From positions 1-53,634 of the IMG/VR virus record IMGVR_UViG_3300026187_000020: DNA of 53,634 nucleotides; one strand, 5' to 3'. This DNA is from a virus (lineage: Duplodnaviria > Caudoviricetes). Below, one piece after another: positions 5,743-42,186 of this stretch. Below the pieces are notes generated by a model, which did not search any database, was not told the origin of the DNA, and saw only the letters and a list, made by a program, of their open reading frames with translations. Made by a program: the position numbers and the translations under genes. How positions within the stretch are numbered: the stretch's first letter is position 1; each line of letters opens with the position of its first letter.

Positions 5743-5762
5743 TTCTTTAACGTCAGGTATTA
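5743..5762 (-). promoter_or_regulatory. phage RNAP promoter, class L (TAATACCTGACGTTAAA|GAA)
   Basis: One of 4 near-identical copies, all at gene boundaries; T7-like 17-nt geometry, predicted +1 at 5745. Confidence 0.85.
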
Positions 5763-5763
5763 T

Positions 5764-5970
5764 TTACCCAATAATTTCAATCTTATAGTCGTAGTTGTCT
5801 TCATACAACTCGGCATAAGTTTCTTCTCCGTCAATTTCCATGATGACTTCGATATAACCATCGCCAAGCGCTTGAACAAAACCCGCATGAGTTTCATTCT
5901 CAAACATCACAGCAATACGATTACCGATTTTAAGCGAAGGCAAAATCTGAGCCAATGACATTCCGTACAT
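5764..5970 (-). CDS. hypothetical protein
   Basis: AAGGA RBS; overlaps the 3' end of the RNAP gene. Confidence 0.65.
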   Translation of the reverse strand: MYGMSLAQILPSLKIGNRIAVMFENETHAGFVQALGDGYIEVIMEIDGEETYAELYEDNYDYKIEIIG

Positions 5971-8098
5971 CTAGGTTTCCTTTCTCTGGTACTAGATCAA
6001 TTGAGTTTAGTTGCAAGAGAACTTTCTCTAGCGGGTTAGCTTCATAGAGTTCGACAAACTTTTCTCTGACATGGTAGAACATTTTGTTCATATTGCCAGC
6101 ATGAGATCCAAAAGAGTCATGAACGACAGTGACTGGATAGTCAGCATCGTGAATGCACATAGTAAGATGAACAGCATCAAGACTATGAACCACGTTGGGC
6201 GCTGCACCTGTTTTTTGTTTACTCTCATTAATAGTTGTCTCTTCCCATACTTGGATTTGGACTTTAATAATATCATCACCATACTTTAGCTCAGTTCGCT
6301 TATTAGTAGGCTTACGATATGCTTGAAATACAGGAAACCCTGTAATTGGTGAAATCCAGTTCATATGCTCTTTCCGTTCATTTGCTCTTTCAGCAACTGT
6401 TTGGAAGAGTCTCAACATACGAGCTGGCCCCTTAAGCTCCTCATAACAGGTATCATATACCAGAGTGCCAAGGAGTGCTCCCCAGAGATGCTCTTTGTCT
6501 CTTAGATAGGGGGAGATATCCCGAGTGTCTTCTATTACCTGTTGACCCATACCGTAGGACGTACCACCATAGCCTAGTGTCATGACATTACGCTTGACAG
6601 TCTTACGTTGGATTTTCTTGTCTTGGATATTGTGCCAGTATACAGGGAATAGTTTTACTCGGAGATCTCTATTTTGATTGCGCCAAGTTTGTGCTGCTTG
6701 AAAAGCCAAAGCCTTTCTTTCAGACTTATCTGGAGCAGTGTTGTATTCGTTTTGTAGCCTATTAGCTGTTTCGAATACCTCTTGAAACTTATCGATAGTC
6801 TCCTGATCAGTCTCCTTTACCATCTTATCAAGACGATTCCACACCTTCTCAGCAATGAACATATAAACATCACCGGGGAGATCTTGTGGAACAAGGTTTA
6901 CTAGTGGTGCAACCTCATCGTCTTTAGACATAGCAACAAGGTGTTGAACACCGTTGTTAGAACCGTCAATATAAACAGGTAGACAACTTGGGAAGTCTTC
7001 TGTTGCATGTCCATCACCATGCCAATTAGATAGCATAGAGAGTTCATAACAAGCAGAAAGAAAGCTGAAAGGCTTATCTGCCTTCATCCAGCCAGTTTCT
7101 TCCATTGGTCGATCTGCATACATCAACAAATCATCTAAATTGTCTTGTACCCACTGTACACGATCATCAAGACTTACTTTGTCATTACCCCATACGTTTG
7201 CAGTATGAACACATAGCCAGTAGTAGCCCTCTTCTCCAAGAGGTACTGCTTCATCTAGCATTAGAATTCCCTTAGCATTATCGCTAGATTGTTCATGCAA
7301 GAAAGCAGTATTAGGGTAAATACGGCCACGAAAGTCAAGATTATACAGGTGGTAGAATGGTCTACCAATGTGCTTTTCTGCTAGTCTCTGAATAGCTTCA
7401 GCTTCGATAATTAACGAAGCCCGTTTAATTGGGTCAATCTCCTTGGTAAACTTAAAAGGATTCTGTTCTGAAGTCATACATTGTTTATAAACTTCAAATA
7501 CTGGTTCGTTAATTCGCCAAGCGGTATGACTAAGCTTGTTAAGAGTATTAACAATATAGCTCATATCATTTTCTTGGAAATACTTTAGTGCAGCCTCATA
7601 ACCTTTCTTAATTACACTAATACCAGTGTCAATATGATAAGCTTCTCCCTGCCAATCTTCAGGTGGTGCGCTGACAGGAAACATATCAACTTTCTCTGTA
7701 TCAACTAGATCCATTAGTTCTTTAATGGCTTTCCAGTCTTTAGCATAAAGAAAGTAAGATCTGTGCTTATCCTTTTTACCATTACGATAAGTATGTTTCT
7801 TTCTATATCCCAGTATCCCAAGTTCAATATAGCTGATTAGCACAAACCAACCACCTTGAACATCTAGAATACTGTTTTGTTTTTGACGTAGCTTCTGTCT
7901 TAGTCGTCGACCAATACTACTTGCTACATCTACTAGTGTTCCGTTTCTTTCTAACCCCTTGAGTACGTGAATGTAAGAGAATTCTATGATATCTCTAGCA
8001 GACATATTTGTTAAAAAGTTAGCTGCTTGTCGTTTATCAAGAATTGATTTACGATATTCTAGATCTTCAGTTAATCTGTCTAGAATAGTTAATTCCAT
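5930..8098 (-). CDS. T7-like single-subunit DNA-directed RNA polymerase (RNAP-2, ~722 aa)
   Basis: LDFRGRIY, motif A IDGSNNGVQH, motif B RKTVKRNVMTLGYG, APNVVHSLDA, motif C VHDSF; GGAGGA RBS favours start MELT at 8098. Confidence 0.97.
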   Translation of the reverse strand: MELTILDRLTEDLEYRKSILDKRQAANFLTNMSARDIIEFSYIHVLKGLERNGTLVDVASSIGRRLRQKLRQKQNSILDVQGGWFVLISYIELGILGYRKKHTYRNGKKDKHRSYFLYAKDWKAIKELMDLVDTEKVDMFPVSAPPEDWQGEAYHIDTGISVIKKGYEAALKYFQENDMSYIVNTLNKLSHTAWRINEPVFEVYKQCMTSEQNPFKFTKEIDPIKRASLIIEAEAIQRLAEKHIGRPFYHLYNLDFRGRIYPNTAFLHEQSSDNAKGILMLDEAVPLGEEGYYWLCVHTANVWGNDKVSLDDRVQWVQDNLDDLLMYADRPMEETGWMKADKPFSFLSACYELSMLSNWHGDGHATEDFPSCLPVYIDGSNNGVQHLVAMSKDDEVAPLVNLVPQDLPGDVYMFIAEKVWNRLDKMVKETDQETIDKFQEVFETANRLQNEYNTAPDKSERKALAFQAAQTWRNQNRDLRVKLFPVYWHNIQDKKIQRKTVKRNVMTLGYGGTSYGMGQQVIEDTRDISPYLRDKEHLWGALLGTLVYDTCYEELKGPARMLRLFQTVAERANERKEHMNWISPITGFPVFQAYRKPTNKRTELKYGDDIIKVQIQVWEETTINESKQKTGAAPNVVHSLDAVHLTMCIHDADYPVTVVHDSFGSHAGNMNKMFYHVREKFVELYEANPLEKVLLQLNSIDLVPEKGNLDVRNVIGSDFAFA

Positions 8099-8167
8099 AT
8101 ATGTTATCCTCCGAACAGGCATTGTATAATTATTATACCCTGTTATTTAGAATCATGAACAATATTA

Positions 8168-8233
8168 TTATTTGTCAGGAGTAGCGTTTACAAACATCAT
8201 AACTACCACCATGCAAATAATACCTATTGTCAT
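8168..8233 (-). CDS. 21-aa hydrophobic peptide
   Basis: MTIGIICMVVVMMFVNATPDK*, preceded by a GAGGTG RBS. Confidence 0.4.
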   Translation of the reverse strand: MTIGIICMVVVMMFVNATPDK

Positions 8234-8245
8234 ATATCACCTCAG

Positions 8246-8296
8246 AAAAAAAAAAATAGTTTAATTTGGTAAGCCCCCGCCCCGAAGGGCGAGGGT
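8246..8296 (-). terminator. GC-rich UUCG hairpin with displaced U11 tract
   Basis: ACCCTCGCCC-TTCG-GGGCGGGGGC, then TTACCAAATTAAACTA and T11. Confidence 0.55.
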
Positions 8297-8302
8297 AAAA
8301 CT

Positions 8303-8533
8303 TTACGAAAGATTCGGGTTGTTCTTCAACAGAGTCTTGAGCCAGTTACGAACACTGGCATCAGTAACTCCATACTTGCTTGCTACATCAGCAAACGAGT
8401 AACCTTCAAGTACTTCACTCGCAGCGATTACTCGCATACGATTGGTGATCCCTGCATAACGATGACCTTGACCTACATAGTAGCTTGGGGCTTTTTTGGT
8501 GTTACGGATCTTTGTACTTACAGACTTAGCCAT
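8303..8533 (-). CDS. small helix-turn-helix DNA-binding protein
   Basis: YSFADVASKYGVTDASVRNWLK HTH pattern; strong GAAGGAGATAT RBS. Confidence 0.8.
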   Translation of the reverse strand: MAKSVSTKIRNTKKAPSYYVGQGHRYAGITNRMRVIAASEVLEGYSFADVASKYGVTDASVRNWLKTLLKNNPNLS

Positions 8534-8619
8534 GAGATATCTCCTTCATTTGGCATTGTAGACCTCTGTGGTCTAAAAGACCCACTATTGCTAATGGGCT
8601 AGTTAAACTACAGGGAGGT

Positions 8620-8658
8620 TGATACATACTGTATCATTATAGATACGCTAGTTTTCTC
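8620..8658 (-). promoter_or_regulatory. early promoter/hairpin element, class E copy 4
   Basis: GAGA-N8-GTATCTATAA-TGATACA-GTA-TGTATCA. Confidence 0.8.
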
Positions 8659-8800
8659 GGTTTTCAAACCAGTCTTCTAGATCATCATCTTTAGTAGGAA
8701 CATACTCTTGATAAGTATGCCCCCATTTCTCATCAATCTCTTTTACAAGATTGCTGAAAGAGATCTTGTCTAGATGCTCTTTCTTTTCTTCAGGTGTCAT
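8648..8800 (-). CDS. hypothetical protein (50 aa)
   Basis: Hand-translated MTPEEKKEHLDK...FENREN*. Confidence 0.6.
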   Translation of the reverse strand: MTPEEKKEHLDKISFSNLVKEIDEKWGHTYQEYVPTKDDDLEDWFENREN

Positions 8801-8807
8801 TTTAGTT

Positions 8808-9011
8808 TTAGTAGCCATACATTGGTTCCCTCCAAATTGACGTTACAGTGTGGATATCGCTATCAATAGCTCCATAAAGCCTAAAAGCCTTAGTTCTAGC
8901 TTGAGCTTCGGCGTCTTCAAAAGACTCTTTGCTTTCAGCAACAATTCGGAAGTTCTTCAACTCTCCCCAAAAACCATAGTCTGCGGTGCCTTTAATCTCA
9001 GCTGCGTACAT
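8808..9011 (-). CDS. hypothetical early protein
   Basis: GGAG RBS, TAATG overlap. Confidence 0.7.
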   Translation of the reverse strand: MYAAEIKGTADYGFWGELKNFRIVAESKESFEDAEAQARTKAFRLYGAIDSDIHTVTSIWREPMYGY

Positions 9012-9136
9012 TAGTTTATCTCCAGTGTTGGTAGTTGGTACTCTCCATCGATGATGAAGAAAGGATTGACTTCAGTAGTAAACTCGTAGTCTTTCCACGA
9101 GTTCATGTATTCCACAAAGAAGTTATAGTCAAGCAT
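9011..9136 (-). CDS. hypothetical protein (41 aa)
   Basis: Hand-translated MLDYNFFVEY...LEIN*; GGAGG RBS. Confidence 0.6.
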   Translation of the reverse strand: MLDYNFFVEYMNSWKDYEFTTEVNPFFIIDGEYQLPTLEIN

Positions 9137-9275
9137 CTTGAAGTTCCTCCGCTTTTACTTGATCTTCAAGTGAAGTCAAGACCTGATTAATCAAGTCTTG
9201 TGCTTCGTCAGTTCTTCCTGCCATCAAAAGCATAAGAAACATCTCAAGTTTGAACTTCATCTGTTTCGCAGTCAT
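9129..9275 (-). CDS. hypothetical protein (48 aa)
   Basis: Hand-translated MTAKQMKFKL...LQDA*; AAGGAG RBS. Confidence 0.6.
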   Translation of the reverse strand: MTAKQMKFKLEMFLMLLMAGRTDEAQDLINQVLTSLEDQVKAEELQDA

Positions 9276-9286
9276 TCTACTTCTCC

Positions 9287-9673
9287 TTACTTGTAGAACA
9301 TGTGATTGCCAACTTTACCAACGTATTCTAGGTCAGAGACCCAGAAAGGACGGACATAATCGGCGTGATAGTGCGTAGCACCAGTACCAAACAACATGTT
9401 TGGATTCTCAAGGACTTCTTCAGCTAGTTTCTGAATATGTCCCCATTCTACTCGGTCAAGATGACTCATCCGAGTAGGATCGTCGTGTTTCCCATCATGA
9501 GTCCATGAAAATTGTTTAGTTTGCCAAACAACTCCACAAACTGTATCAGGATAGTGAGGTGAATCAACACGATTCAAAGTAACCTCTGCAACCATCATCT
9601 GGCCGTCAATAGGTTCATTACGAGCCTCAAAAAACACATTGAGGGCTAGGCACATAGCTGCTTCCATGATCAT
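9287..9673 (-). CDS. SleB/CwlJ-like cell wall hydrolase (Hydrolase_2)
   Basis: CLALNVFFEARNEP...VTLNRV...YPDTVCGVVWQ..QFSW...GATHYHA..V.P.W...GNHMFY. Confidence 0.92.
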   Translation of the reverse strand: MIMEAAMCLALNVFFEARNEPIDGQMMVAEVTLNRVDSPHYPDTVCGVVWQTKQFSWTHDGKHDDPTRMSHLDRVEWGHIQKLAEEVLENPNMLFGTGATHYHADYVRPFWVSDLEYVGKVGNHMFYK

Positions 9674-9924
9674 TTTCTTCTCCTCTTGGGTATTGGTCTT
9701 TTCAATCCTAGATATATATCTAGAAAGAAAAAGCCGATTGCAGTGCCAATATTAAAGCTTCCCGTTATATCAAACCCGTGGGTTACAAGAAAGCCAAGTA
9801 TTCCGACAATGCCGACAAATAGTGAAGGCGAGCCGAAGTAGTTGCGGTGAGATTCTAGAAAATAGCAAATAACTGCAAATCTAAATGCAATCATTACTAT
9901 TATAGTAGCGACGATATCTTCCAT
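9670..9924 (-). CDS. membrane protein
   Basis: Three hydrophobic segments and a basic C-terminus; start moved downstream of the hairpin at 9948-9965. Confidence 0.6.
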   Translation of the reverse strand: MEDIVATIIVMIAFRFAVICYFLESHRNYFGSPSLFVGIVGILGFLVTHGFDITGSFNIGTAIGFFFLDIYLGLKRPIPKRRRK

Positions 9925-9947
9925 ATTACACAAAGCCCGTACAATTG

Positions 9948-9965
9948 GCGGGGCCGAAGCCCCGC
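9948..9965 (-). other. UUCG-capped RNA hairpin
   Basis: GCGGGGC-TTCG-GCCCCGC just after a stop codon; no U tract. Confidence 0.6.
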
Positions 9966-9974
9966 TGTTTGTTT

Positions 9975-10409
9975 TTATTGACATCCATCGTTTAGAATGT
10001 CAAGCGTTGTGCCAATCGCCATGCCCATGACACCAACAGTTGCCATCATTGATGCGGTAAATGGCAACCACGGACCAGAGAATGCAGCCAAGCCCAGGTA
10101 TGACCCAGACATTCCAGCACCATAGCCAACTGTCGTTGCACTGACTTGTGTACCAGTCATAGCAATTGCAGCTCCGTAAGTTGCACCAGCGGATGCGCCA
10201 ATTATGGCACCATCTGCATTTTCAACAATGCAGTTACCGACGTCCGACAAAATGTTTGTCGAGTTTATCGAAAATCTTTGAGCGTCTGTCAGTTCAATTA
10301 CTATACCAGCGTCTTTAAGTCTGGCAAGTCCGTCATTGTCAGCGACGGCAGTAGTCGAAGTGCTTGCAACTACAAACACAGAGAGAATAGTGGTTACGAT
10401 CTTTTTCAT
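9975..10409 (-). CDS. exported protein with Gly/Ala-rich hydrophobic C-terminal half
   Basis: Signal peptide MKKIVTTILSVFVVA...AVA; GxxxG-rich segments. Confidence 0.75.
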   Translation of the reverse strand: MKKIVTTILSVFVVASTSTTAVADNDGLARLKDAGIVIELTDAQRFSINSTNILSDVGNCIVENADGAIIGASAGATYGAAIAMTGTQVSATTVGYGAGMSGSYLGLAAFSGPWLPFTASMMATVGVMGMAIGTTLDILNDGCQ

Positions 10410-10440
10410 GTTGATCTCCTCTTGGTTTCCACTTGGTTGT

Positions 10441-10478
10441 TGATACTATTGTATCATTATAGATGCCTAAAAAATCTC
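10441..10478 (-). promoter_or_regulatory. early promoter/hairpin element, class E copy 3
   Basis: GAGA-N8-GCATCTATAA-TGATAC-AATA-GTATCA. Confidence 0.8.
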
Positions 10479-10668
10479 ACTTTTTAGACATCATTTTGGC
10501 ATTATTTTCTGCTTCATACTCACGATATTTTCTAGAAGCCAAAATAGCAACTACGATATCACCCGCATAAAATAATAGTACTAATGCCCATACTATTAAC
10601 CACGGCCAATAAAAATTCCAAGTCATTTGACCGTACAGCTCTGCGAGTGTAAAAGTTTCTTGTTCCAT
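10477..10668 (-). CDS. small single-pass membrane protein
   Basis: Trp-rich TM segment; GAGGAG RBS; lies between the two direct repeats. Confidence 0.75.
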   Translation of the reverse strand: MEQETFTLAELYGQMTWNFYWPWLIVWALVLLFYAGDIVVAILASRKYREYEAENNAKMMSKK

Positions 10669-10701
10669 GGTATATTCTCCTCTTGGTTTCCACTTGGTTG
10701 T

Positions 10702-10739
10702 TGATACTATTGTATCATTATAGATGCTACAATTTTCTC
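10702..10739 (-). promoter_or_regulatory. early promoter/hairpin element, class E copy 2
   Basis: GAGA-N8-GCATCTATAA-TGATAC-AATA-GTATCA. Confidence 0.8.
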
Positions 10740-10987
10740 ACTTTTTGTAGCATTATATCTGCAAATTCAACTTGTGTCATAAAGCAATTATTTGCAATAT
10801 CATACCATTTTGACCATTCATTTGTCCATTTATTATTTCTTAAATCTAATCCTGTTTTATCAAGCAAATTAATAATTGCAAATTGACCATCCCATTCGAC
10901 AATTCCATATTTGTAGCTACTAGGGAGTCGCTTGGCGTTAGCAATTGCCTCAATAAATTTTTCAGGTTCTTTGATCCACATAGTCAT
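10727..10987 (-). CDS. hypothetical early protein
   Basis: AAGGAG RBS directly after class E copy 1. Confidence 0.75.
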   Translation of the reverse strand: MTMWIKEPEKFIEAIANAKRLPSSYKYGIVEWDGQFAIINLLDKTGLDLRNNKWTNEWSKWYDIANNCFMTQVEFADIMLQKVRKL

Positions 10988-11002
10988 CTCCTTTTGGATA
11001 GT

Positions 11003-11040
11003 TGATACTAATGTATCATTATAGATGCCTTAATTTTCTC
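11003..11040 (-). promoter_or_regulatory. early promoter/hairpin element, class E copy 1
   Basis: GAGA-N8-GCATCTATAA-TGATAC-ATTA-GTATCA, immediately downstream of the late-operon terminator. Confidence 0.8.
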
Positions 11041-11073
11041 ACTTTTTTGTACGGGCTTTCTGACGTATTTGAT

Positions 11074-11101
11074 AAAAAAGGCCACCCCAAGCGGGATGAC
11101 C
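11074..11101 (-). terminator. intrinsic terminator closing the structural operon
   Basis: GGTCATCCC-GCTT-GGGGTGGCC-TTTTTT. Confidence 0.85.
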
Positions 11102-11106
11102 AGTTG

Positions 11107-11409
11107 TTATTTACGCTTCCATGAGCGTCTATTTTTATTATTTTGAGAACGATTAGAGTTCTTCAAATTACTCGGCTTATTATTTGCTCGATTTCTATCT
11201 TTGTGATCAACAGGTCCAGTGGTCTTTTTTCCTGTTGACATTTCTTTTATAATGCGGTGAACGTAGTACGCCTTCCCGTCAATACGGACAGTTTTGTAGC
11301 CATCGCCATGATTAGTTCCGGCAGGAGATCCCGCAGAACTTCTTCCACGGGATTCCTTCCAATATAACTGCCCACCTTTTCTTGTGAATAGTTTATTCCA
11401 ATTAGGCAA
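11107..11409 (-). CDS. HNH endonuclease
   Basis: GY..VRIDGK.YYVHRII...VDHKDRNRANN..SNL...SQN. Confidence 0.9.
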   Translation of the reverse strand: MPNWNKLFTRKGGQLYWKESRGRSSAGSPAGTNHGDGYKTVRIDGKAYYVHRIIKEMSTGKKTTGPVDHKDRNRANNKPSNLKNSNRSQNNKNRRSWKRK

Positions 11410-14400
11410 AACGACCTCTTTCTTTGTTTGTCATATTAACTCCCTGTGTAATCTGAGGAATCATAGCGACAATCTCTTTACGAGTCTGTCTAGATACATC
11501 ACCAGAAACATTAATATTGTATACTTGTTGAGATTGACCTGAGTCTTTAAATATTCTGTTAACCTGATTAGCAGGCACAACAAGTTCACCCGGAGTTAGC
11601 ATGGCAGGAACAGAGTCCTTTCCAATCTGAGAATATGGAGTACTAGGTACAATACCTCCAGAGCTAAATCTGAATAATGAGAAGATGCTCCCGAATCCAC
11701 CAAATAGTGAACCAAAGATATTTCCAAGCCCGCTAGTCAAACTACTAAAAAGAGAGCCAATTCCACCTAAAGCTCCGCCCTCTGAGAATAGTCCCTTAAA
11801 GATACTATTTTCACCAAACAAAGTTTTGCCATTAAATAGTTCAGACTTCTCAGCGCCGTCTTTAAATGATTTTGAAGCCTTTTCGCCCCATGTACCACCC
11901 ATACTAAGAAGGTTGTCAAAGATGTTATCGCTATTACCAAACATTCCTTCAAAAAGTTTGTCGGCAAAACCATCTACAAAACTATCAACAACTCTGCTTG
12001 TAAAGGAGTCTAGTAACATAAGACCAAACTCTTTAAAGTTTCCTGTCTTTAACGCCTCTTTGAAGCCCGCCCTAACATCTGCAAGGAAGGCTTGCCCCTG
12101 CGTCATGCCGTAAGTAGAATCTCCTCCACCTCCTGCAGCTGGCGCTGGCGCTCTGTCTCCCGCTACTCCTTCAAATTCAGACTGAAGAATAGCAGCATCA
12201 ACTGCTCGTGTTTGTGCACCTACTGCTTCTTCGAGTAGTTCTTCGGCTCTGATTAGACGACCTTTTAAGAACACATCATTTGGATTTTCCGTTAAAGCCG
12301 TTTCAATTGCAAAAAGACTATTTTCTAATTTGGTAACAGAGTCTTCAGAAGTAAGGTAGTTGTCTAAGTTAATTCCAGACAAAACACCTTCTTCAATTAA
12401 CAGGTTAACCTCTTCAATTGTGTAGCCAGTAGCCTCTTCGACTGATCCAGGCCGTAATTGCGGAGCGGGAGGTGTCCCCTTTACAAATCCTGTTAGTCTA
12501 CCACTATTAAGAGAGTCCATAAATGTACGACCATACTTTTTAACAGCAGAGGCTTGGACAACAAACTCACCATTGGAAAGTCTAGCGGGAATCATGTCAT
12601 CTGTTGGGCCACCAGAACCAGAAATATAGCCACCAGAGCTATAGCCGGGGGTCATAGAGTAACCTAATGCTGGAACAGCAGCTCTATACTCAGAAGGAAC
12701 TCCTTTTAATGTCTCAATATAGCTCCCTAATGCTTCAGTCAGAAGGCCAAGAGAGGTCGTCATGTTATCAACTTGCTCTACTTGTTCACCTTTAACAATC
12801 TCTACATCAGAAAGCCTTGAGAAAGATTCTGTCATAGCATTTGCAATTTCTGTAGCACTTAAGCTATTAAGAACATCTTCTCTAAACTGATCATTAATTT
12901 CACCTGCAGCGTTTTCTGAAGCCTTTGCAACCCCAGTATTTGTTACTGCGCTATTAATAGAATTAATCAACCCTTGAGAGGTAAGTACAATGCTAGAGAC
13001 GTCGCCTTCATTAAAACCAGCAAACAAGAGTGGGTTTAAAGCAGAAAGGTCTATTTCCCCTTTAGTAGTCTTAAATTGCTCGTTTAAAGCCGCAATGAAG
13101 GGGGTTGCAAACTTCTCGTCCTTTAAAACAGTTTTCCAAGCTTCGGAGACAGGTACGCCTTCTGAAATTAGCCTAGCCACTTCAGATTTGGTTGCAATAA
13201 ATGCATCATTATCTTTAAGGACTTTTGCAAAGTTTTGAGTAGGTTTTGACAGGCTATCAAATATCGCCCCTGATTCATTTAAGGCTGCGAAACCAGAAGC
13301 GAGATCTTCAGTTGTTGCGTCTATAAGCTTATTATTAGCTCTTGAGGTATAAGCGTAAAGAGCGCCAATACCCACTACGAGGGCAGCTCCTGCCCCTGCA
13401 ACACCAAGCCCAAGTGAAGCAAGGATGCCTGTAGAAATTGATCCCCAGATAAAGGTTCCGAGTTTCAATCCAGCTGCTGCAATACCATCATAGACAACTT
13501 GTGCCAACATAGCGGATCCAATAAATGCACCAATTTCTACAGCTAGACTCGCTCCATCACCCAAATCAAGAGCGTCTGAAATTTGAGATCCAATCTTAAC
13601 TGAGCCTATTAAACCAGCGCCCAATACAATCCCTGTTCTAAGGAATGTAGCTATTCTTGTTTTAAACAAGTTTGCTGCTGCAGAAGATTTTTTAAAATCA
13701 GCAACTTTATCGGGGTCTAATACAGGTGAAGGTGGCCCTGCTTGATTTCTTCCTTTGGGAGCCTCGGTAATAATATTTCCTTGAGAATCTCTCTTATAAA
13801 GATCCGGGGCATCCCCCGTAAGGGCAGAGGTAAATCCTGCAAACTGACCGCTAAGAAGGTCTAATAAGAATAACCCCCCGGACAACATAGCTGCTCTAAC
13901 ACTACTTGAGAAGAAAGCCGCAGTAACACCTACTACAATAACCCCCGCTAAGGATTTAGCAATTGGGTTTTCAGAAACAATCTTATCAAAGTCAAGACCT
14001 TCTAAAGTGCCTTCCCCAATAGCGGCAACTGTCTGAGAAAGATTTCCGATTAAGCCACCATCACCCTCAATCTTGTTAGAAATTGCAGTAAAGAGTGATT
14101 TTGATACTTTGGCAGCAAAAGCTTCAATGCCCTCGGCTGTCCAATTTGTAGTAAGAAGCTGAATCCCAACAATTCTAAGTAAGGCTCCCTGAGCGCCATA
14201 CTTTAAAAACGCAAGCCCACCTAAAATTGTATTACCCAAAGTAACATCAACCGCTTCACTTACAAATTCACTCCAGTCAAATCCAGTAACTTTGAGTTTA
14301 ATGCTTTGGTATTGCTCAGATACAGAGTCAGAAGCATTACCTGCAACGGCAACAACCCCAATGAATTTACCGTTTTCATCAAACAATGAAGAAGCTTTGA

Positions 14401-16813: not shown

Positions 16814-16829
16814 GTATTCCTCCTTAAAT

Positions 16830-16874
16830 AAAAAAGCCCCCTAATGTATCTCGATAAGAGAGCCATCAGAGGGC
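16830..16874 (-). terminator. intrinsic terminator/attenuator upstream of the tape measure gene
   Basis: GCCCTCTGATG...CATTAGGGGGC 11-bp stem followed by TTTTTT. Confidence 0.7.
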
Positions 16875-16880
16875 ATAATT

Positions 16881-17210
16881 TTAATTAGGGGTTAACAAGC
16901 CAATCTTAGTTAGTACTTGTTCAATAAAGTATTTTGGGGCTTGTCTACTGTGCCCATTGTTTAAAACCGAAATATATTCCACCGGGTTTTCAATTTTTCC
17001 TGAAATAAATTTGTTGGCTTCCATTTGTTTTTCGCTACTCCAACCAGAACGTGCTTTACCAGTATCTACTGGTGTCACAACTCTTAAGGTTTCTGTAGCA
17101 TAATCTATTCTTTCGCCAATTTCTATATTAGAGAGGGCTGCGATTTCTCTCTCAACCCTTTCCATTTCTCTTTTAAAACTGACTTTATCAAGCGTAATTT
17201 TATTTGCCAT
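16881..17210 (-). CDS. HK97 gp10-like neck/tail completion protein
   Basis: TPVDTGKARSGW and NPVEYISVLNNGHSRQAP motifs. Confidence 0.85.
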   Translation of the reverse strand: MANKITLDKVSFKREMERVEREIAALSNIEIGERIDYATETLRVVTPVDTGKARSGWSSEKQMEANKFISGKIENPVEYISVLNNGHSRQAPKYFIEQVLTKIGLLTPN

Positions 17211-17553
17211 CTTTAAAATTAGGTTTCCAAGAACCATCGCCTCCCTTAGCTTTAAGCATTAGATCTAATATTTTACCTTTTGGTAGTGCCTTATCATCTT
17301 CTAATTTAGATTGTTCATGATTATGAATCTGTTTTAAAGCCGGGAATATAGTCTCTGGGTGCTCTTTTACACCTTGCGCTCTTAGAAGCATATAGGCTCT
17401 CTGATCATCTCTCCATCCAACAGGACGACGATTAAAGAACTCAAACCATTTAGTAAGCTCATCGTATGGCATATAGTCCATTATTTGATAGACAGGTATG
17501 CCTAATTGATAAGCAACTTCATAAATAGCTTCTTCCCGCTCGGTTAGTTTCCC
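17200..17553 (-). CDS. tail assembly chaperone, -1 frameshift extension (gpT-like)
   Basis: The -1 frame is open from the slippery site (LTEREEAIYEVAYQLGIPVYQIMDYMPYDEL...) into ORF 17200..17481. Confidence 0.85.
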   Translation of the reverse strand, partial: GKLTEREEAIYEVAYQLGIPVYQIMDYMPYDELTKWFEFFNRRPVGWRDDQRAYMLLRAQGVKEHPETIFPALKQIHNHEQSKLEDDKALPKGKILDLMLKAKGGDGSWKPNFKDGK

Positions 17554-17843: not shown

Positions 17844-17849
17844 AATACT

Positions 17850-18086: not shown

Positions 18087-18142
18087 AATACTCTCTTAAA
18101 CTGGGGAAGAGAGGGCCGGGAGGCCCCCTCCTAATTATACTA

Positions 18143-18682: not shown

Positions 18683-18684
18683 TT

Positions 18685-21845: not shown

Positions 21846-24800
21846 CTATGGACCAATGCCATACCAATCCTCCCCAGTTTTAAAGGGAGATAGTATGTCT
21901 TCTCTTGTAATTTTATTATTAGGATCAATAAGACCTAAATCAGTTGCCTCTTTTAGAAGCTCATTATAAGATGATCTAGAGAGACCTTGACGTCTCATCT
22001 CTCTTAGAGTCTTCCTTATAGTGTCACCACCAAGAGCATCTGCATAGATGGTTCTTAGTGCGTCTTTAGATCGCCTTGCATCACCAATATTAGTGAAAAA
22101 AGCGTCATGGATTGTGGCAGTAGGTACGTTATTTTTCCGCCCCCACAAATGAAATCTACGGACTAATACAGCATCATTGCTGTGATTTCCGTTAACTCCA
22201 AGACCAATTCTTGCATCATTTAGAGAGCCTTTCCCAAGTAGCTTTCCGTCTTCTGCTGCATCTTCGTAAATGTTAGCAATTCTACGCCCACTTGCAGGGT
22301 CTCTAAATTCTATTCTTTCTTGAATCTTAGGCCGATACCTCTGAGTCATAATTTTTCCGTCAAAAGTAACCCAAGGAATATCTACTTTTTGAGTTTCATT
22401 GACATAAGTTACTGCCGCCTTTTTCCAGAAATTAATAAAATTATCTGTAACAGGCGCTCTAGCTGACATGTTTTTACTCATAATCCTAGAGATTTCTGAA
22501 AAATCTTTAGGACCAATAATACCTTTACGAGAACTGCTCATTTTAAATACAAAATCAGCAACATCAGGGTGAATGTCTTGGGCGTCTTTAAGCAAGGTTC
22601 TTCCAGCAGGTTGACTCTTGTTTACAAGTTCAACAAGTTCTTTTCTAAATGAAACTAACTCTGCTTCAGTTGCTGTAGCTCCAAGACGATTAGCCACTTT
22701 AATTTTACCATCAATTATTCTAAGCTGAGAATTTAATTCTTCTTTAGTAATTGTGATAAAACCCTTTTCTTCAAGAACTTTAGCAAACTTATTAGCCACA
22801 TTAGCAGTTTTAGTTGCAGCTCCCGCCCCATAAAATGAAACCATGTTTTGAGCCTTAGCGGCTTTAGCCAAATCCTCCCAAGTTAACCCAGCGTCTCTTA
22901 ATGCAGGGTTTTTTAAGAACTCTGGATCATTCACTGTATCCATTGCAACAAGGTCATACAGTCTGTTCTTTTGTTTAGTAGCAAGAACATTAGACGCTTG
23001 TGCGATAGACCTATCACCAGTAGACAATGCGATGATTTGTGCCCCAGAAGAACTAGCATCATTTTCAATCATTAATCTAGTTCTATAGCTCTCAATAGGC
23101 CGTCCTGATTTTAAATGATCATCAATACGTTTATATTCTAAAGCCATTCTAGTCATTTTTGGAACTTCAGCACCCTCAAGGTTCTTAATTAGAGGGTGTT
23201 CAAGGAATTCTCTAATTCTTCTGTCTCTTTGAGTAGTAGATTGAAGAATTTCCCCAAGTTTAATTAGGTCTTTCTCATGTCTTCTAAAGATTTCTCTTCG
23301 TCCGTACTGAGTTAGAGCTTCTGTTCCTGGGCCAATCATTGCGCCAATCTGAATCTTAAGTTCATCTAAGGCTTCTTCTGACATATAAACTGCTCGACCC
23401 GAATTTAAGAAAGGTCTAACAACTTCACCACCTGTTGGGGTGAGATAACCTCTGTGATAGACACGACCTCTAGAGTCAATAAAAGCATTTGTTCTAAAAG
23501 ACTTTCCTCTTTGAACATGATACTTAACCGTTGACATAAGGCCATAGCCCTGTTCACCTCGGTTTAAAATTTCATGCCTAAATTCATTAATGCTATCATA
23601 GTATTTAGTGTTACCTCTTGGGTCTCTAAACCTAACAACATCATCCATAAAAGTAGCAAATTCAGCATCTACCTGATATTCAACATCCATGACATGATTT
23701 AGCATTTCTGCCATTTCTCTATCAATCTGTTTTTCGTCATAATCAGCGAATTTGTCTCTAGAAATAATAGGTATTCCTGTATCATTACCTCTAGCATCTA
23801 TGTATGTCTTTTTACCAGCTTTTACATATAGACGATCTCTTTCGTTAGTATTACCTAAGCGTCTTGCAATAGTAACTCGGCGTTCAGCTTCTTGTAGCTT
23901 TATTAAGTTTTTATCAACTACAATTACTTCCCGAGAGATAGTATCAGCCCAGCCACCGGAAGCTCTTCCGGTTTCTAGATCAATAACCCCTCGTCGGGTT
24001 TTACCTCTAAACTGTACTTTAATGTAACCATTGTCCACCATGTATTGAAGGATAATAGAACCTTCTTTATGGTAGTCTGCTAAGTTATGTTTTGTAAAAG
24101 GTACTAAATTCTCAAAATCTTTAGAAAACTGCTTACCAATATTAATGGCAAGGGTATCATAATCTGTAGACTGGCCTGATGCAATTAGTTTAGCAATTTT
24201 AGTTATATTATCTAGAGCCTTTTCATCCACTAAAGATGACTTAGGTCTTTTAGAAATAACTGCAAACTCATAGTCTAGAATACTCCGAATAACTTCTCTT
24301 TTTTTAGAATATATTCTTGTAATCCAGCTATCCGTCGGCTCTCTATCAAAGGTAGATTTATAAAGTTTATACGCCTTATCAAAACCAGTGTCTTTTAACA
24401 GCCGCTTAATAAGTTTTTCTCTTGTAGGATACTTATCAATTAACTTTCTAAAATAAACTCTCAAAGGCGCTCTGCCTGTAAAGTATAATTTTTGAGCTAA
24501 TTTTTTACCTTCTGTTCGACGCCAAGCATCAATAAATCTTTGATCTTTGAGCAAATTATCTTGAAGCTCTTGGAAGTTATAATACTTACCCAAAATCTGA
24601 ACTTGAGGAGTATCTTTGGATAAGTAACTAACAAACATCTCAGATCTTTTTCTTGATCTTACGTCAAGAAGTCGTGATACGTTTTGAACAGCAAATCTAT
24701 TTTCTGCTCTAACAACAGAAGAAAAGTCCTCCCATAGCCGCTTGTCATTATAGAATCTTTCGAATACTACTCTGAGATTTTCAACTATTACTGTTTGTTG

Positions 24801-26600
24801 GTTGACTGAAACCTTATCATCTAAACTGGCTACTAAACTCTCAATAAACTCTTTGTCATCAGGACGAAGTGTTTTTGAATTTCTCATAAAATCTAGTCGT
24901 TCCTGATACAGGTTAAAATCAGGATCATATAGATTATTATTTTTAATTTCGCCAGTTAATGGATCTGCGCTGAAATTTCTTTCATCAAACTCATTACCAA
25001 CTCTACGTCTAGACGCTGTTTTCCCAACTAAGGAAGTGCCTTTATAATCAGTCAAAGATAGCGTTTTAGTGTAATCATCAGAGTCTAAAAGGAACATATT
25101 CCTTAACGCTTCTTTGTTCTTTGGGCTTCTTGTCAGATCAGAGGGTCTGCTTACAGATAATCTAACTTCTTCATCTCTTATTCTTTGTCTAGGTTTAAAG
25201 ATAGAAGTAATTTCGGCAGCTCTTCGTCTTAGAGTTTGTATTCCAATTGCAGTACCTGTTGGTGTAACAAATTCTCTAGCGTCAATTGCACCGCCTCTAA
25301 AAAGCTTTGCTCTCTCTTCATTTCCAAGAAGCTTTACTTGTACAGCAAATGATTGGCGCTTTAGCCATTCATTAAAACTTTGTATAATTGAAGGAACCCC
25401 GTTAAACATCTTAGTATCGACTAATGCAAGCTTATCCTTCTTAATTCTAGTTCTTGCAGGAAAAAACTTACCTGTAAAGTCTGTTTTACCAATAGACTTA
25501 TCCTTAAAGATAATAGAGTCAGGATCAAAGGCATGATCATTTCCCATAAGAAAAGCATTTCTTACAGTTTTATCTGCCGACTGAATCTGTCTATACATAA
25601 ACGCTTCCCGGTCTCTTTGAAACTGTTCAGTAGCGCCTCCGTATTTCTTAATAAGAGCTTGCTTTTCAGCATAGCTTAAATCACCCTTTTTAAGAATAAA
25701 TCCATTTTTCTTTGCCCAAGCAATTGTTTCTGCGTCTTCGTAAAATTCATGATAAACATATTTAGGCTTATAGGCTTCTATTCTTTTCTCTACAGCTAGA
25801 ACATTTGATTTTGTATGCTTTTCCCCAAATACAGCAATATTATTTGTAGCTACTTGCTCCATCTCTTCTTTGCTTTTGAGAACAGGAACAATACTGCTTC
25901 GACAATTCCAATGTAATGGAGGAATAAAGCGCCTATCATCAATATCATAAACTTTACCATTATGATATGAACAAATGGGACTTGTTCTAGCATCTAGAAT
26001 GGCTGTAAACATAAAACCTTTTACAATATCTCTATTGTCTTCAGCAACTTTTTTCAATGCTGCTGTCTGAGTAGAGGTGATAGCGGTTCTAGTCAAAGCT
26101 CTCGCCTGATACTCTGTAATCTTAGTAGTTTTTAAGACGTCTGCAATTATTTCTTTTTGACTCTTCCCTCTTGCAAGCCCGAGCCGAACTTTACTTTGTA
26201 TTCTAACAAGTTCTCCTGCGGAAACATTTCTGATATTAGTAGTAAGATCAGAAGGGCCTTTAATGTTTGGCCCTGTAATTTGCGCCAGAAGTTCTCTTGT
26301 TTTAGGTTTTTTTACTTCAAAAAAACGTGAAACTTCTCTGTGCAAGTTATCACTATGAAAGTCTAGTTGAGAAGTAGAAAATTCTAAAAGAGTATTTCTT
26401 TTATGAGATAGAAGTTCTGTTCCAAAGCGGCTAACTTCTGGGGTTAAATCCGCTCGGATATCTCTCTGCAGTAGGGATTTGATATTTGCTCTATGTCGCC
26501 GAATAATTCGTCTATTTTGAACTTGGACGCTTTCTTCATAGAGCCTAACATCAGTCATATGATCAACAATACGATCAAAAAGTTTATCATTTACAGTCAT
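21846..26600 (-). CDS. MuF/SPP1-gp7 head protein fused to a single-subunit RNA polymerase (putative virion RNAP, RNAP-1)
   Basis: N-terminal MuF (LTRTA, AILDARTSPIC, PPLHWNCRS). C-terminal RNAP motifs: IDSRGRVY, ENDASSSGAQ, KAQNMVSFYG, NGNHSNDA, TIHDAF. One uninterrupted ORF between portal and scaffold. Confidence 0.93.
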   Translation of the reverse strand: MTVNDKLFDRIVDHMTDVRLYEESVQVQNRRIIRRHRANIKSLLQRDIRADLTPEVSRFGTELLSHKRNTLLEFSTSQLDFHSDNLHREVSRFFEVKKPKTRELLAQITGPNIKGPSDLTTNIRNVSAGELVRIQSKVRLGLARGKSQKEIIADVLKTTKITEYQARALTRTAITSTQTAALKKVAEDNRDIVKGFMFTAILDARTSPICSYHNGKVYDIDDRRFIPPLHWNCRSSIVPVLKSKEEMEQVATNNIAVFGEKHTKSNVLAVEKRIEAYKPKYVYHEFYEDAETIAWAKKNGFILKKGDLSYAEKQALIKKYGGATEQFQRDREAFMYRQIQSADKTVRNAFLMGNDHAFDPDSIIFKDKSIGKTDFTGKFFPARTRIKKDKLALVDTKMFNGVPSIIQSFNEWLKRQSFAVQVKLLGNEERAKLFRGGAIDAREFVTPTGTAIGIQTLRRRAAEITSIFKPRQRIRDEEVRLSVSRPSDLTRSPKNKEALRNMFLLDSDDYTKTLSLTDYKGTSLVGKTASRRRVGNEFDERNFSADPLTGEIKNNNLYDPDFNLYQERLDFMRNSKTLRPDDKEFIESLVASLDDKVSVNQQTVIVENLRVVFERFYNDKRLWEDFSSVVRAENRFAVQNVSRLLDVRSRKRSEMFVSYLSKDTPQVQILGKYYNFQELQDNLLKDQRFIDAWRRTEGKKLAQKLYFTGRAPLRVYFRKLIDKYPTREKLIKRLLKDTGFDKAYKLYKSTFDREPTDSWITRIYSKKREVIRSILDYEFAVISKRPKSSLVDEKALDNITKIAKLIASGQSTDYDTLAINIGKQFSKDFENLVPFTKHNLADYHKEGSIILQYMVDNGYIKVQFRGKTRRGVIDLETGRASGGWADTISREVIVVDKNLIKLQEAERRVTIARRLGNTNERDRLYVKAGKKTYIDARGNDTGIPIISRDKFADYDEKQIDREMAEMLNHVMDVEYQVDAEFATFMDDVVRFRDPRGNTKYYDSINEFRHEILNRGEQGYGLMSTVKYHVQRGKSFRTNAFIDSRGRVYHRGYLTPTGGEVVRPFLNSGRAVYMSEEALDELKIQIGAMIGPGTEALTQYGRREIFRRHEKDLIKLGEILQSTTQRDRRIREFLEHPLIKNLEGAEVPKMTRMALEYKRIDDHLKSGRPIESYRTRLMIENDASSSGAQIIALSTGDRSIAQASNVLATKQKNRLYDLVAMDTVNDPEFLKNPALRDAGLTWEDLAKAAKAQNMVSFYGAGAATKTANVANKFAKVLEEKGFITITKEELNSQLRIIDGKIKVANRLGATATEAELVSFRKELVELVNKSQPAGRTLLKDAQDIHPDVADFVFKMSSSRKGIIGPKDFSEISRIMSKNMSARAPVTDNFINFWKKAAVTYVNETQKVDIPWVTFDGKIMTQRYRPKIQERIEFRDPASGRRIANIYEDAAEDGKLLGKGSLNDARIGLGVNGNHSNDAVLVRRFHLWGRKNNVPTATIHDAFFTNIGDARRSKDALRTIYADALGGDTIRKTLREMRRQGLSRSSYNELLKEATDLGLIDPNNKITREDILSPFKTGEDWYGIGP

Positions 26601-28280: not shown

Positions 28281-28300
28281 TTCTTAAACGTCAGGTATTA
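28281..28300 (-). promoter_or_regulatory. phage RNAP promoter, class L (TAATACCTGACGTTTAA|GAA)
   Basis: Repeat copy upstream of the portal gene; predicted +1 at 28283. Confidence 0.85.
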
Positions 28301-28370: not shown

Positions 28371-28390
28371 TTCTTAAACGTCAGGTATTT
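28371..28390 (-). promoter_or_regulatory. phage RNAP promoter, class L (AAATACCTGACGTTTAA|GAA)
   Basis: Tandem copy 90 bp upstream of the previous one; predicted +1 at 28373. Confidence 0.85.
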
Positions 28391-42100: not shown

Positions 42101-42114
42101 ATCTTAGTTGCCAT
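39112..42114 (-). CDS. tail fibre protein with internal duplication and Gly-rich tip
   Basis: DADTLDG repeats, duplicated module, C-terminal AVGGGGGGGAG domain, followed by a chaperone gene. Confidence 0.88.
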   Translation of the reverse strand: MATKIIHKKSSTASSVPAAGSLEPGEIAVNLADKKLYTKTTGGTVIELADGDKLAGIEAGATADQTKADIDALGIDAATLDGIDSSSFIRSDAADTKTSGDLAFSDNVKATFGGASDLQIYHDGSNSYIWDAGDGDLILRGSTGIKLQSSSGVLEYLSTNSSTGSVELKLSGATKLATTTTGVDITGTLTSDGLTVDGTVTGNIASFINDGDSTNAKGIKIQGGTDNNFGENYKIEFFDGDGTASGRISTNTGSINIEAAPVTINDGGGDYDFRVESATNTHALFVDASTSNVGIGASSPATALDVDGSITVSGTVDGRDVATDGTKLDGIEAGADVTDATNVTTALGSISIEALSDVNTMAPTDGQVLAWDNANSRWDAADAAGGGGTLDSLSDTTITSNSAGEILKWNGSAWINNTLAEAGIQPAGSYLTGNQTITLSGDVTGTGTTSIAVSLAADSVGSSEIAANAVGASELNVVGNGTAGQLLSSDGDGSFSWVAAGGDADTLDGINSTQFLRSDTADTKTSGDLKFSDNVKATFGAANDLGIYHDGSNSYIADTGTGNLKLLAGNLRIKNSADNENMITADQNGAVNLYYNNSTKLATTTTGVDITGNIVVSGNVDGRNVATDGTKLDGIEAGAEVNPTASELLTSIKTVDGTGSGLDADTLDGQHASAFLTSVASNSIGATELNVTGNGTAGQALTSDGDGSFSWADAGGADTVLHYSLSISSSQTVTIPANTKALVIAVGGGGGGGAGAIDDDSSSATTASGGGSGGWVAKLLEPTSDLDLTITVGAGGLGRSVSDASESQAATAGGSTTVTGTGVSLTAGGGGAGNGVRATSNSVATSTGGTGGTASGGDTNTAGQAARTISLASSASGWNVGHGATPRGSALSADATTRTNTINGDTIENMTFTDPTAGPHPNGRAGALEQTLGGRGAWVNSPNATGYSSTAGNGLAPGGGGGGAIARSSDSDTGGRSANGGDGGAGRVYIYVFAAPDGVY

Positions 42115-42166
42115 TGGGCGATTCTCCTATGTGTGAGGAAGGAGGAACCTATGGAGGCTCCCCCTC

Positions 42167-42186
42167 TTCTTTAACGTCAGGTATTA
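42167..42186 (-). promoter_or_regulatory. phage RNAP promoter, class L (TAATACCTGACGTTAAA|GAA)
   Basis: Identical to the 5743-5762 copy; predicted +1 at 42169, followed by a 5' hairpin. Confidence 0.85.

Follow-up and report, generated by a model that had tools for sequence, protein, structure and literature searches.

Two single-subunit RNA polymerases and two promoter-like motif families suggest a transcription cascade in a lineage of marine siphophages

Genome organization

The stretch of DNA considered here (the window) is the complete, linear IMG/VR viral record IMGVR_UViG_3300026187_000020, 53,634 b long and with a CheckV completeness estimate of 78%, and our subject is the pair of single-subunit RNA polymerases (RNAPs) that it encodes: RNAP-1, which is fused to a MuF minor head protein, and RNAP-2, which stands alone. 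Two families of repeated motifs, which we call class E and class L, accompany these genes, and we propose that both may be promoters and that the two enzymes may form a cascade in which one makes the other. The coordinates of the features are collected in Table 1.

All substantial open reading frames (ORFs) of the window lie on the minus strand. As annotated with PHROGs and Pfam, their order begins with the C-terminus of TerL, fibers and virion proteins, PhoH, distal tail and tail proteins, and an endolysin; it continues with the portal, the MuF fusion, the major head protein, the tape-measure protein (TMP), an HNH endonuclease, and a block of small genes; and it ends with RNAP-2, a gp2.5-like single-stranded DNA-binding protein (SSB), a nucleoside deoxyribosyltransferase-like gene, a kinase-like gene, and a DNA polymerase gene truncated by the contig end. 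Gene content and order are shared with the roseophages DSS3_VP1 and DSS3_PM1 (Naomviridae), the common order being TerL, PhoH, tail, endolysin, portal, MuF, major capsid protein, TMP, small genes, RNAP, SSB, DNA polymerase, and tblastn identity to these relatives is 62% for RNAP-1 and 57% for RNAP-2. Both cultured phages are described as siphoviruses whose virion DNA carries deoxyuridine (dU) in place of deoxythymidine (PMC8323127).

Table 1. Polymerase genes, promoter-like motifs, RNA hairpins, and neighboring genes in the window
Feature	Coordinates	Strand	Evidence or remark
gp2.5-like SSB gene	5162-5695	minus	
Class L copy between RNAP-2 and SSB gene	5743..5762	minus	predicted +1 G at 5745
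RNAP-2, T7-like single-subunit RNA polymerase, 722 aa	5930..8098	minus	PF00940, PDB match, motifs
Nested hairpin CAGG-GTATA..TATAC-..CCTG, directly 5' of the RNAP-2 ribosome-binding site	8116..8142	minus	same place in L004-L048
GC hairpin, short spacer, and run of 9-16 T between helix-turn-helix gene and RNAP-2	8246..8295	minus	in 18 aligned upstream regions
Helix-turn-helix protein, 76 aa, first gene after class E copy 4	8303..8533	minus	PF13542 HTH, E 4e-8
Class E copy 4, before helix-turn-helix gene and RNAP-2	8620..8664	minus	CCGAGAAAA variant, GTATC core, 7-bp stem; predicted +1 G at 8635
Class E copy 3, before ORF 9975-10409	10441..10485	minus	predicted +1 G at 10455
Class E copy 2	10702..10746	minus	predicted +1 G at 10716
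Class E copy 1, before 86-aa ORF 10727-10987	11003..11047	minus	predicted +1 G at 11017
Terminator-like hairpin and T run at the end of the structural operon (TMP, HNH), immediately ahead of class E copy 1	11080..11101	minus	
RNAP-1, MuF minor-head-protein fusion, 1584 aa	21846..26600	minus	PF04233 + PF00940
RNAP-1 polymerase module, aa 800-1584	21849..24203	minus	AlphaFold2 model, Foldseek, family profile
MuF (SPP1 gp7/Mu F) domain of RNAP-1, aa 134-237	25890..26201	minus	PF04233, E 6.8e-14
Portal gene	26627-28198	minus	
Class L copy, proximal, portal/RNAP-1/head operon	28281..28300	minus	TTTAAG subtype
Class L copy, distal, upstream of portal gene	28371..28390	minus	TTTAAG subtype
Endolysin with peptidoglycan-binding domain, late region	28390-29226	minus	
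Glycine-rich fiber gene, 1000 aa	39112-42114	minus	
Class L copy before the 1000-aa fiber gene	42167..42186	minus	

Two single-subunit RNA polymerases

By its sequence, RNAP-2 is typical of T7-like enzymes, with matches to PF00940 at an E-value of 7.7e-86 and to T7 RNAP in the PDB (1aro) at 2.7e-63, and motifs A (DGS..G.QH), B (K..VMT..YG), and C (HDSFG) as well as the C-terminal FAFA all align to T7 in a HMMER alignment. The ORF extends to 8122 (5930-8122), and the start codon kept among relatives is the ATG at 8098; this codon and the ribosome-binding site were assigned from an alignment of 18 upstream regions.

RNAP-1 is laid out as a MuF domain (residues 1-250, modeled at a predicted local distance difference test score (pLDDT) of about 90), a disordered linker (250-385), a helical region (385-800), and a T7-like polymerase, and MuF and RNA_pol are its only Pfam domains at E <= 0.01. 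The PF00940 match is weak (residues 1161-1538, 32.3 bits, above the cut-off of 22), and the single sequence has no match in the PDB; a family profile was required, which matches T7 RNAP at E 1.5e-6. An AlphaFold2 model of residues 800-1584 (pLDDT 86.4, predicted template modeling score 0.80) has T7 RNAP and the yeast and human mitochondrial RNAPs as its best Foldseek matches (E 5e-18, TM score ∼0.5-0.6), in alignments that span ∼820-920 columns, comparable to the length of T7 RNAP. No chain of the virion RNAP (vRNAP) of phage N4 is among the ∼40 matches listed. The module models as a complete T7/mitochondrial-type polymerase, with a right-hand fold and a T7-type N-terminal domain. For the remainder of the protein, the model of residues 1-799 (pLDDT 76.5) gives no Foldseek match in the PDB at E <= 0.001, and residues 385-800 have no usable match in the protein atlas and no assigned fold.

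Homologues of RNAP-1 are numerous: a large protein database holds 425, and the 120 of these that were listed are 935-1602 aa long and 51-96% identical over residues 900-1584, most with both Pfam families. The named homologues among the matches listed are annotated as "head morphogenesis" or "minor capsid" proteins. Invariant in 27 aligned homologues (51-81% identity) are DxRGR, the Asp of NDASSSGAQ, the motif B residues of K..M..YGAG, and the HD of motif C (D243/R245/G246/R247, D382, K450/Y458/G459, and H699/D700), which we take to be the T7 motifs on the strength of the profile alignment. Judged from sequence, both RNAP-1 and RNAP-2 look catalytically competent. The initial annotation had described a T7-like stand-alone RNAP at 5930-8098 and, distinct from it, a MuF-fused one, and both descriptions are borne out, the former by PF00940, the T7 RNAP match, and the conserved ATG, the latter by the presence of PF04233 and PF00940 in one protein. 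The RNAP-1 gene lies in the head module directly downstream of the portal gene, an order that is identical in DSS3_VP1, and the MuF domain and this position count as conserved in the 425 homologues; from the MuF fusion and this position, RNAP-1 is probably packaged and injected with the DNA.

Polymerase genes of altered form occur in several relatives. EBPR siphovirus 1 (JF412302) encodes a distant MuF-RNAP homologue (32% identity; L131, 25771-31144) that an HNH endonuclease gene divides into two ORFs, and the first 50 kb of this partial record contain no RNAP-2 and no obvious repeated promoter, so that it adds nothing to the co-variation comparison. RNAP-1 of contig G008 (12251-14888, minus strand) is read in two frames with a TGA in between, and the RNAP-2 open frame of G006 and G007 is only 471 aa; the split RNAP-1 and the short RNAP-2 frames suggest insertions (an intron or a homing endonuclease) or frameshifts in the polymerase genes.

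Class L, a putative promoter of RNAP-2

The class L motif (TAATACCTGACGTTWAAGAA; TAATACCTGACGTT(A/T)AAGAA on the coding strand) has four matches at <=3 mismatches, all on the minus strand of the window, as compared with 0.03 expected from shuffles, and 0 of 100 shuffles reach four. The copies are intergenic and co-oriented with the genes, and their placement before the SSB gene, the portal gene (twice), and a fiber gene, which had been noted from the outset, is upheld by this motif scan. If the G of AAG is taken as +1, class L has TAATAC at -17 to -12, an A/T-rich stretch at -4 to -1, and a G start; the T7 promoter likewise has TAATAC at -17 to -12.

The arrangement recurs in relatives. A class L core is found 183-238 nt after RNAP-2 in 35 of 36 relatives' loci and within 900 nt upstream of the portal gene in all 29 of 29, with two copies in 18. 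Of the 176 matches to a loose class L regular expression that fall outside the window, 165 have the orientation of the anchoring RNAP gene, and the complete genome of DSS3_VP1 carries 12 co-oriented copies of its own version, ATAGGGTGCGTTAAAGAG. The motif itself changes from clade to clade: positions -12 to -8 read CCTGA in the window, GGGTG, GGTTA, or GGTGA in DSS3_VP1, and GTGGA in L042; at -6 the L029 clade has C in place of G; and in clades whose RNAP-2 is 53-58% identical the SSB gene is preceded by a re-spaced form, ..TAATGACCAAAGG or ..CCTAATGACCAAAGG. In the same clades (window, DSS3, L042, L029, L175-L202), RNAP-2 also differs in the segment that aligns to the T7 specificity loop, the residues that would contact DNA being assigned by alignment to T7. 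Co-variation of this kind between loop and promoter is known for T7 versus T3. Because class L combines a T7-like layout and a +1 G with co-variation of positions -12 to -8 with the specificity loop, we consider it very likely to be the promoter of RNAP-2.

Several further properties of class L deserve mention. The two copies upstream of the portal gene (28281-28300 and 28371-28390) have TTTAAG where the others have TTAAAG, as do their counterparts in relatives L052-L127; by analogy with the class II and class III promoters of T7, the TTTAAG form may be a subclass that differs in strength or timing. The copy after RNAP-2, in the window and in many relatives, begins with GAAC-loop-GTTC at the predicted +1 G. 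An inverted repeat at +1 to +3 is seen at 23 of 122 loose regular-expression matches, many of which are chance sites, as compared with 279 of 3000 random positions. For the G005 clade no class L equivalent has been defined, a candidate, TTATAGCTAAGAGGT, being unconfirmed.

Class E, a nearly invariant motif upstream of RNAP-2

On the coding strand, class E consists of AAAAAGTGAGAAAA, five variable bases, and GCATCTATAATGA, followed in all four window copies by TGATAC-loop-GTATCA. Its 26-nt core has three matches (10439-10464, 10700-10725, and 11001-11026) where 0.00 are expected, and copy 4 has a palindrome one base longer than that of the other copies. Within the window, class E is confined to the stretch from the TMP/HNH terminator to RNAP-2 and does not overlap the distribution of class L, so that the initial picture of two unrelated motif families with separate distributions, class E having four copies upstream of RNAP-2, stands.

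Across 153 loci we count 75 copies of class E, 59 of them distinct, and 70 of the 72 copies outside the window are on the strand of the anchoring RNAP gene; 28 of 31 relatives' loci have a copy no more than 1.7 kb ahead of RNAP-2. The exact motif is found in 68 stretches of the IMG/VR collection (2.9 million contigs), all from the family of the window phage: 67 contain homologues of the window's TMP, HNH, hydrolase, RNAP-2, or SSB with their order kept, and the remaining one is a 1.4-kb fragment of a contig with RNAP-1. The exact motif is present in DSS3_VP1 (two copies) and in clades whose RNAP-2 is 53-60% identical. Among records of >=45 kb with class E, RNAP-1 is present in eight of nine (the window, DSS3_VP1, DSS3_PM1, G005, G006, G008, G009, and G010), the only one without it being G007, which is 65% complete. 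In G005 (L156-L159; 73,778 b, rated 100% complete), where RNAP-1 is ∼52% identical to that of the window, class E differs from the window motif at about three bases, and its single copy sits at the divergence point (58104, minus strand), heading the leftward block. The replication and early genes of G005, RNAP-2 included, are on the strand opposite to the structural genes, the early block being inverted. Core-only copies (GCATCTATAAT without the GTGAGAAAA box) are also found elsewhere than in the early block: in L011, L012, L031, and L039, ∼3 kb beyond RNAP-2, and in DSS3_VP1 at 67793 (L049 17793), where a terminator directly precedes the copy and the gene of a 660-aa conserved protein follows it.

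What does class E precede? The block encodes small membrane proteins, a Hydrolase_2 cell-wall hydrolase, and a helix-turn-helix (HTH) protein, with RNAP-2 at its end, and it is very probably class E that drives this block. The 76-aa HTH protein is of the ISL3 type and has a weak match to Sigma70_r4_2 (0.0027); most of the aligned relatives have such an HTH gene before RNAP-2, and its product is a candidate transcription cofactor or shut-off factor. Two hairpins follow. That at 8246-8295, with its T run, is probably an attenuator that limits read-through into RNAP-2. The nested hairpin at 8116-8142 changes compensatorily in both stems among relatives (CGAG-GTAC..GTAC-CTCG, TGGG-GTAC..GTAC-CCCA) and may be a translational operator or processing site that sets the level of RNAP-2. 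A TATAAT at 8131-8136 was considered as a host promoter for RNAP-2 and rejected, as it is part of this covarying hairpin and its sequence is not conserved. Between the last class E copy and RNAP-2, the aligned upstream regions contain no conserved promoter, only the terminator-like hairpin, a tiny ORF, and the RNA hairpin.

Two observations concern neighboring genes. The HNH endonuclease gene (11107-11409, minus strand) overlaps the end of the tape-measure gene and is present in many relatives and absent from others. The two fiber repeat regions (42620-43429 and 51012-51388) comprise three 270-nt tandem repeats that are 65-72% identical (42620-43429) and, in the second fiber gene, collagen-like repeats with a 27-36-nt periodicity.

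Which enzyme reads class E?

The -10 hexamer TATAAT is perfect in all four window copies of class E and in most of the 59 distinct copies; is class E then a host promoter, or a promoter of RNAP-1? The motif has no -35 hexamer at 16-18 nt upstream, where it reads AAAAGT, and no TG extension, ATC standing before the -10 box. A sigma-70 consensus scan of positions 1-20000 does not list the class E sites, and its 54 sites are no excess over 49 +/- 7. The best sigma-70-like match of that region, ATGACA-17-TATAAT (11/12; 10752-10780, minus strand), falls within the 86-aa ORF, shortly before class E copy 2, and may be due to chance.

A second property of class E bears on the question. Directly after TATAAT, 41 of the 59 distinct copies have a perfect inverted repeat starting at (A)TGA, as compared with 279 of 3000 random positions. 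The hairpins have loops of 3-7 nt and a total length of 13-20 nt, and at least eight stems occur (TGATAC, ATGATAAA, TGATATA, TGATAGA, TGAGA, TGAACT, GAACC, and TGATACA). When RNA starting at the G is folded, the window copies reach -4.6 to -4.9 kcal/mol, and their z values run from -3.5 to -8 (copy 1: -4.6 kcal/mol, z -5.6). The variable spacing and compensatory stems argue for a nucleic-acid hairpin rather than a dimeric or fixed-spacing protein operator, and if such a hairpin forms at the 5' end of the RNA, one base behind TATAAT, transcription must start no later than that G. Sigma-70 start sites lie 6-8 nt downstream of the -10 box; the predicted start geometry of class E, A/T-rich at -4 to -1 and then G, is of the T7 type and fits that type better than sigma-70. 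We infer that RNAP-1, rather than host RNAP, is the most economical reader of class E. The grounds are that RNAP-1 is fused to MuF and encoded directly after the portal; that class E has no -35 box, carries its hairpin at the G, and is invariant as a 32-nt motif specific to this family; and that RNAP-2 has no conserved promoter of its own and RNAP-1 would itself be made from a class L operon.

The main rival, which we regard as unlikely though worth serious attention, is that host sigma-70 RNAP reads class E through TATAAT and makes RNAP-2, which reads class L. In T7 and Xp10, the early genes are transcribed by host RNAP. RNAP-1 would then be packaged for priming, for DNA pulling, or for a few unrecognized sites, or else would be redundant. 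A perfect TATAAT in every window copy speaks for host recognition, a conserved host sigma would explain how clades with probably different hosts come to share one unvarying motif, and the hairpin with T run before RNAP-2 has the layout of a bacterial-type terminator. However, neither a -35 hexamer nor a TG extension accompanies the TATAAT, the sites are missing from the consensus scan list, and the invariant blocks GTGAGAAAA and GCATC play no part in recognition by sigma-70. Additionally, with a start 6-8 nt downstream the hairpin would be outside the RNA, while its variable length disfavors an operator, and a conserved, catalytically intact, virion-type polymerase would be left without a promoter class.

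Could the host enzyme instead be redirected? An appropriation of sigma like that by MotA/AsiA of T4 would have host RNAP work together with a factor from the phage, injected or made from an unrecognized pre-early promoter, that would bind the GTGAGAAAA box near -27. The bipartite architecture, with an upstream box, five variable bases, and GCATC-TATAAT, fits such a scheme, and the block does encode an HTH protein with weak similarity to sigma-70 region 4. That gene, however, is itself behind a class E promoter and so could not set the programme going; no class of pre-early promoters came to light; the core-only copy of DSS3_VP1 (67793) has no box; and the hairpin one nucleotide after TATAAT raises the same objection as for sigma-70. 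We consider this explanation improbable.

The hairpin also brings to mind the vRNAP of N4, which reads DNA hairpins. If injected RNAP-1 read class E as an extruded DNA hairpin, with a start downstream of the stem-loop, then stems of 5-8 bp with loops of 3-7 nt would be of the size of N4 early promoter hairpins, the stems do co-vary, and the enzyme is of the virion type. On the other hand, 18 of the 59 copies have no hairpin, and it is the 32 nt upstream that are conserved, not the loops; the fold of RNAP-1 matches T7 and mitochondrial RNAPs, with no N4 vRNAP in the Foldseek list described above; and class L, too, has a hairpin starting at +1. A hairpin promoter of this kind therefore strikes us as very improbable.

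The least probable explanation, to which we give hardly any weight, reverses the timing: newly made RNAP-1 would read class E late, for lysis-like genes, and RNAP-2 would be expressed early from another signal. It takes its appeal from the membrane proteins and Hydrolase_2 cell-wall hydrolase of the class E block and from the making of RNAP-1 from a class L operon. The absence of a conserved promoter between the last class E copy and RNAP-2, however, would leave RNAP-2 without an early promoter, and the late region has a separate endolysin with a peptidoglycan-binding domain.

A candidate transcription cascade

The preferred reading, then, is a cascade in which injected RNAP-1 reads class E, the RNAP-2 so made reads class L, and new RNAP-1 results; we lean toward it as the best account of the locus as a whole. 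RNAP-1 would be built into the capsid beside the portal and would exit with the DNA. In the cell it would recognize the four class E promoters, which are bipartite and ∼32 bp long (AAAAAGTGAGAAAA, five variable bases, GCATCTATAAT), and transcription would begin at the G after GCATCTATAAT, giving most transcripts a 5'-terminal stem-loop. The class E block would be expressed, with RNAP-2 last in the observed wiring, behind the terminator-like hairpin/oligo-T attenuator. RNAP-2 would then recognize class L, 20-bp promoters of the form TAATAC-CTGAC-GTTAAA with G at +1, which stand upstream of the SSB/replication genes, of the portal/RNAP-1/head/tail operon, and of the fiber gene, and would thereby make the next generation of RNAP-1, a step that the comparison with relatives supports well. 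Host RNAP would perhaps be dispensable throughout.

Class E before RNAP-2 (28 of 31 loci) and class L before portal and RNAP-1 (29 of 29) mean that the wiring of the cascade is conserved across the family. The initial annotation had proposed the same cascade, and this conservation, the apparent competence of both enzymes, and the fit of class L to RNAP-2 all favor it. It had also put forward co-variation of motif and specificity loop as a check; it is seen for class L and RNAP-2, and for class E and RNAP-1 the loop varies and the motif does not.

This last result belongs to a set of observations that weigh against the cascade. The loop of RNAP-1 that aligns to the T7 specificity loop is better conserved than the remaining protein, yet not invariant: it is only 56-89% identical across the family, and the positions aligned to T7 R746 and N748 vary while class E stays constant. 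TATAAT and cross-clade invariance would also be expected from dependence on a conserved host sigma, and a box at about -27 together with a -10 box recalls the T4 middle promoters (MotA box and sigma-70 -10). The missing hairpin in 18 of 59 copies is a further difficulty, as is the resemblance of the block's membrane proteins and cell-wall hydrolase to late or lysis functions. The strong hairpin and T run between the last class E copy and RNAP-2 imply that expression of RNAP-2 needs read-through. Finally, dU-containing DNA, a possible reason for independence from host RNAP, is only a possibility for the window phage; DSS3_VP1 has a dCTP deaminase (PMC12697855), of which no homologue was found in the window, where 78% of the genome is present.

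Significance

Taken in its widest form, the proposal is that a lineage of marine siphophages that is abundant worldwide (Naomviridae and relatives) runs a host-RNAP-independent programme with two orthogonal single-subunit polymerases, the first of them hitherto unrecognized, capsid-delivered, T7/mitochondrial-like, and equipped with its own ∼32-bp bipartite promoter; we see this wider claim as evenly poised. If it is true, the class E promoter has stayed nearly unchanged while the second enzyme and its promoter diversified, and we are looking at a third independent invention of a cascade of injected and newly made polymerases, the first in which MuF delivers a polymerase. Virion-delivered transcription, known so far from N4-like, crAss-like, P23-45-like, and jumbo phages, would be extended to abundant and poorly studied marine phages, and a large MuF fusion protein now annotated as "head morphogenesis" or "minor capsid protein" would acquire a function. 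It would also become understandable how phages whose DNA contains dU could do without host RNAP. For synthetic biology, two compact, naturally orthogonal polymerase/promoter pairs, along with natural class L variants, would become available as parts. Cultured relatives, DSS3_VP1 and DSS3_PM1 on Ruegeria pomeroyi, make each step of the cascade testable.

Comparison with known systems

RNAP-2 and class L resemble T7 RNAP and its ∼20-bp promoter (TAATAC..., +1 G, 5' stem-loop), as found in the T7-like Autographiviridae. The difference is that in T7 host RNAP reads the early genes, there is only one phage polymerase, and there is no MuF-fused enzyme.

The N4 system offers the closest logic within the T7 superfamily: a virion T7-superfamily RNAP is reported to transcribe the early genes, which encode a second T7-family polymerase (PMC4496689, PMC5512222). 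The likeness to N4 and the Schitoviridae thus lies in a virion-carried polymerase (gp50 in N4; for RNAP-1, packaging is our proposal) followed by a second polymerase (RNAP II) for the next gene class. The differences are several. N4 is a podovirus, whereas the window phage has a tape measure; the N4 vRNAP has ∼3500 aa and a metallopeptidase region, whereas RNAP-1 has 1584 aa, a MuF fusion, and a T7/mitochondrial-like fold; RNAP II is two-subunit and cofactor-dependent, whereas RNAP-2 is a single full-length T7-like chain; and N4 late genes use host RNAP, whereas in the window a classical duplex-type promoter, class L, would serve the structural genes as well. In size, partner domains, phage morphotype, and nearest folds RNAP-1 differs from the N4 vRNAP family and is not a member of it, which corrects the comparison with N4 made in the initial annotation: the fold resembles T7/mitochondrial RNAP and not the giant N4 enzyme. 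A 2017 survey reports N4-like virion RNAPs only from N4-like phages and prophages (PMC5512222).

Among long-tailed phages, Thermus phage P23-45 has a tape-measure-fused virion RNAP that is reported to transcribe pre-early genes, including the gene of a second phage polymerase (PMC10770324). A polymerase fused to a structural protein and the same cascade logic are common to both phages; the P23-45 enzyme, however, is a two-barrel RNAP related to cellular RNAPs and carried by the tape measure, whereas both enzymes here are single-subunit and T7-type, with MuF as the carrier. The Bacillus phages AR9/PBS2 and the phiKZ-like jumbo phages have virion and non-virion multisubunit RNAPs and a transcription independent of host RNAP (PMC7598289, PMC9209446). 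They, too, pair an injected with a newly made phage polymerase that uses different promoters, and AR9/PBS2 have dU-DNA, as does the cultured relative DSS3_VP1 (PMC8323127); the AR9/PBS2 and phiKZ-like enzymes are multisubunit and belong to jumbo myophages.

The polyvalent and polymorphic effectors of the MuF type provide the precedent for the carrier, as they join a MuF head domain to an enzymatic cargo predicted to be delivered with the DNA (PMC5512222). RNA polymerase is not mentioned as a MuF cargo in the portions of that survey consulted or elsewhere in the literature searched, and our searches returned no paper on a MuF-fused RNA polymerase, on transcription in Naomviridae, or on this cascade. 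In the main text of the Naomviridae papers PMC8323127, PMC12669031, and PMC12697855, "RNA polymerase" and "RNAP" occur 0 times. As far as we can see, MuF as a polymerase carrier and the presence of two full-length T7-type enzymes in one siphophage are new.

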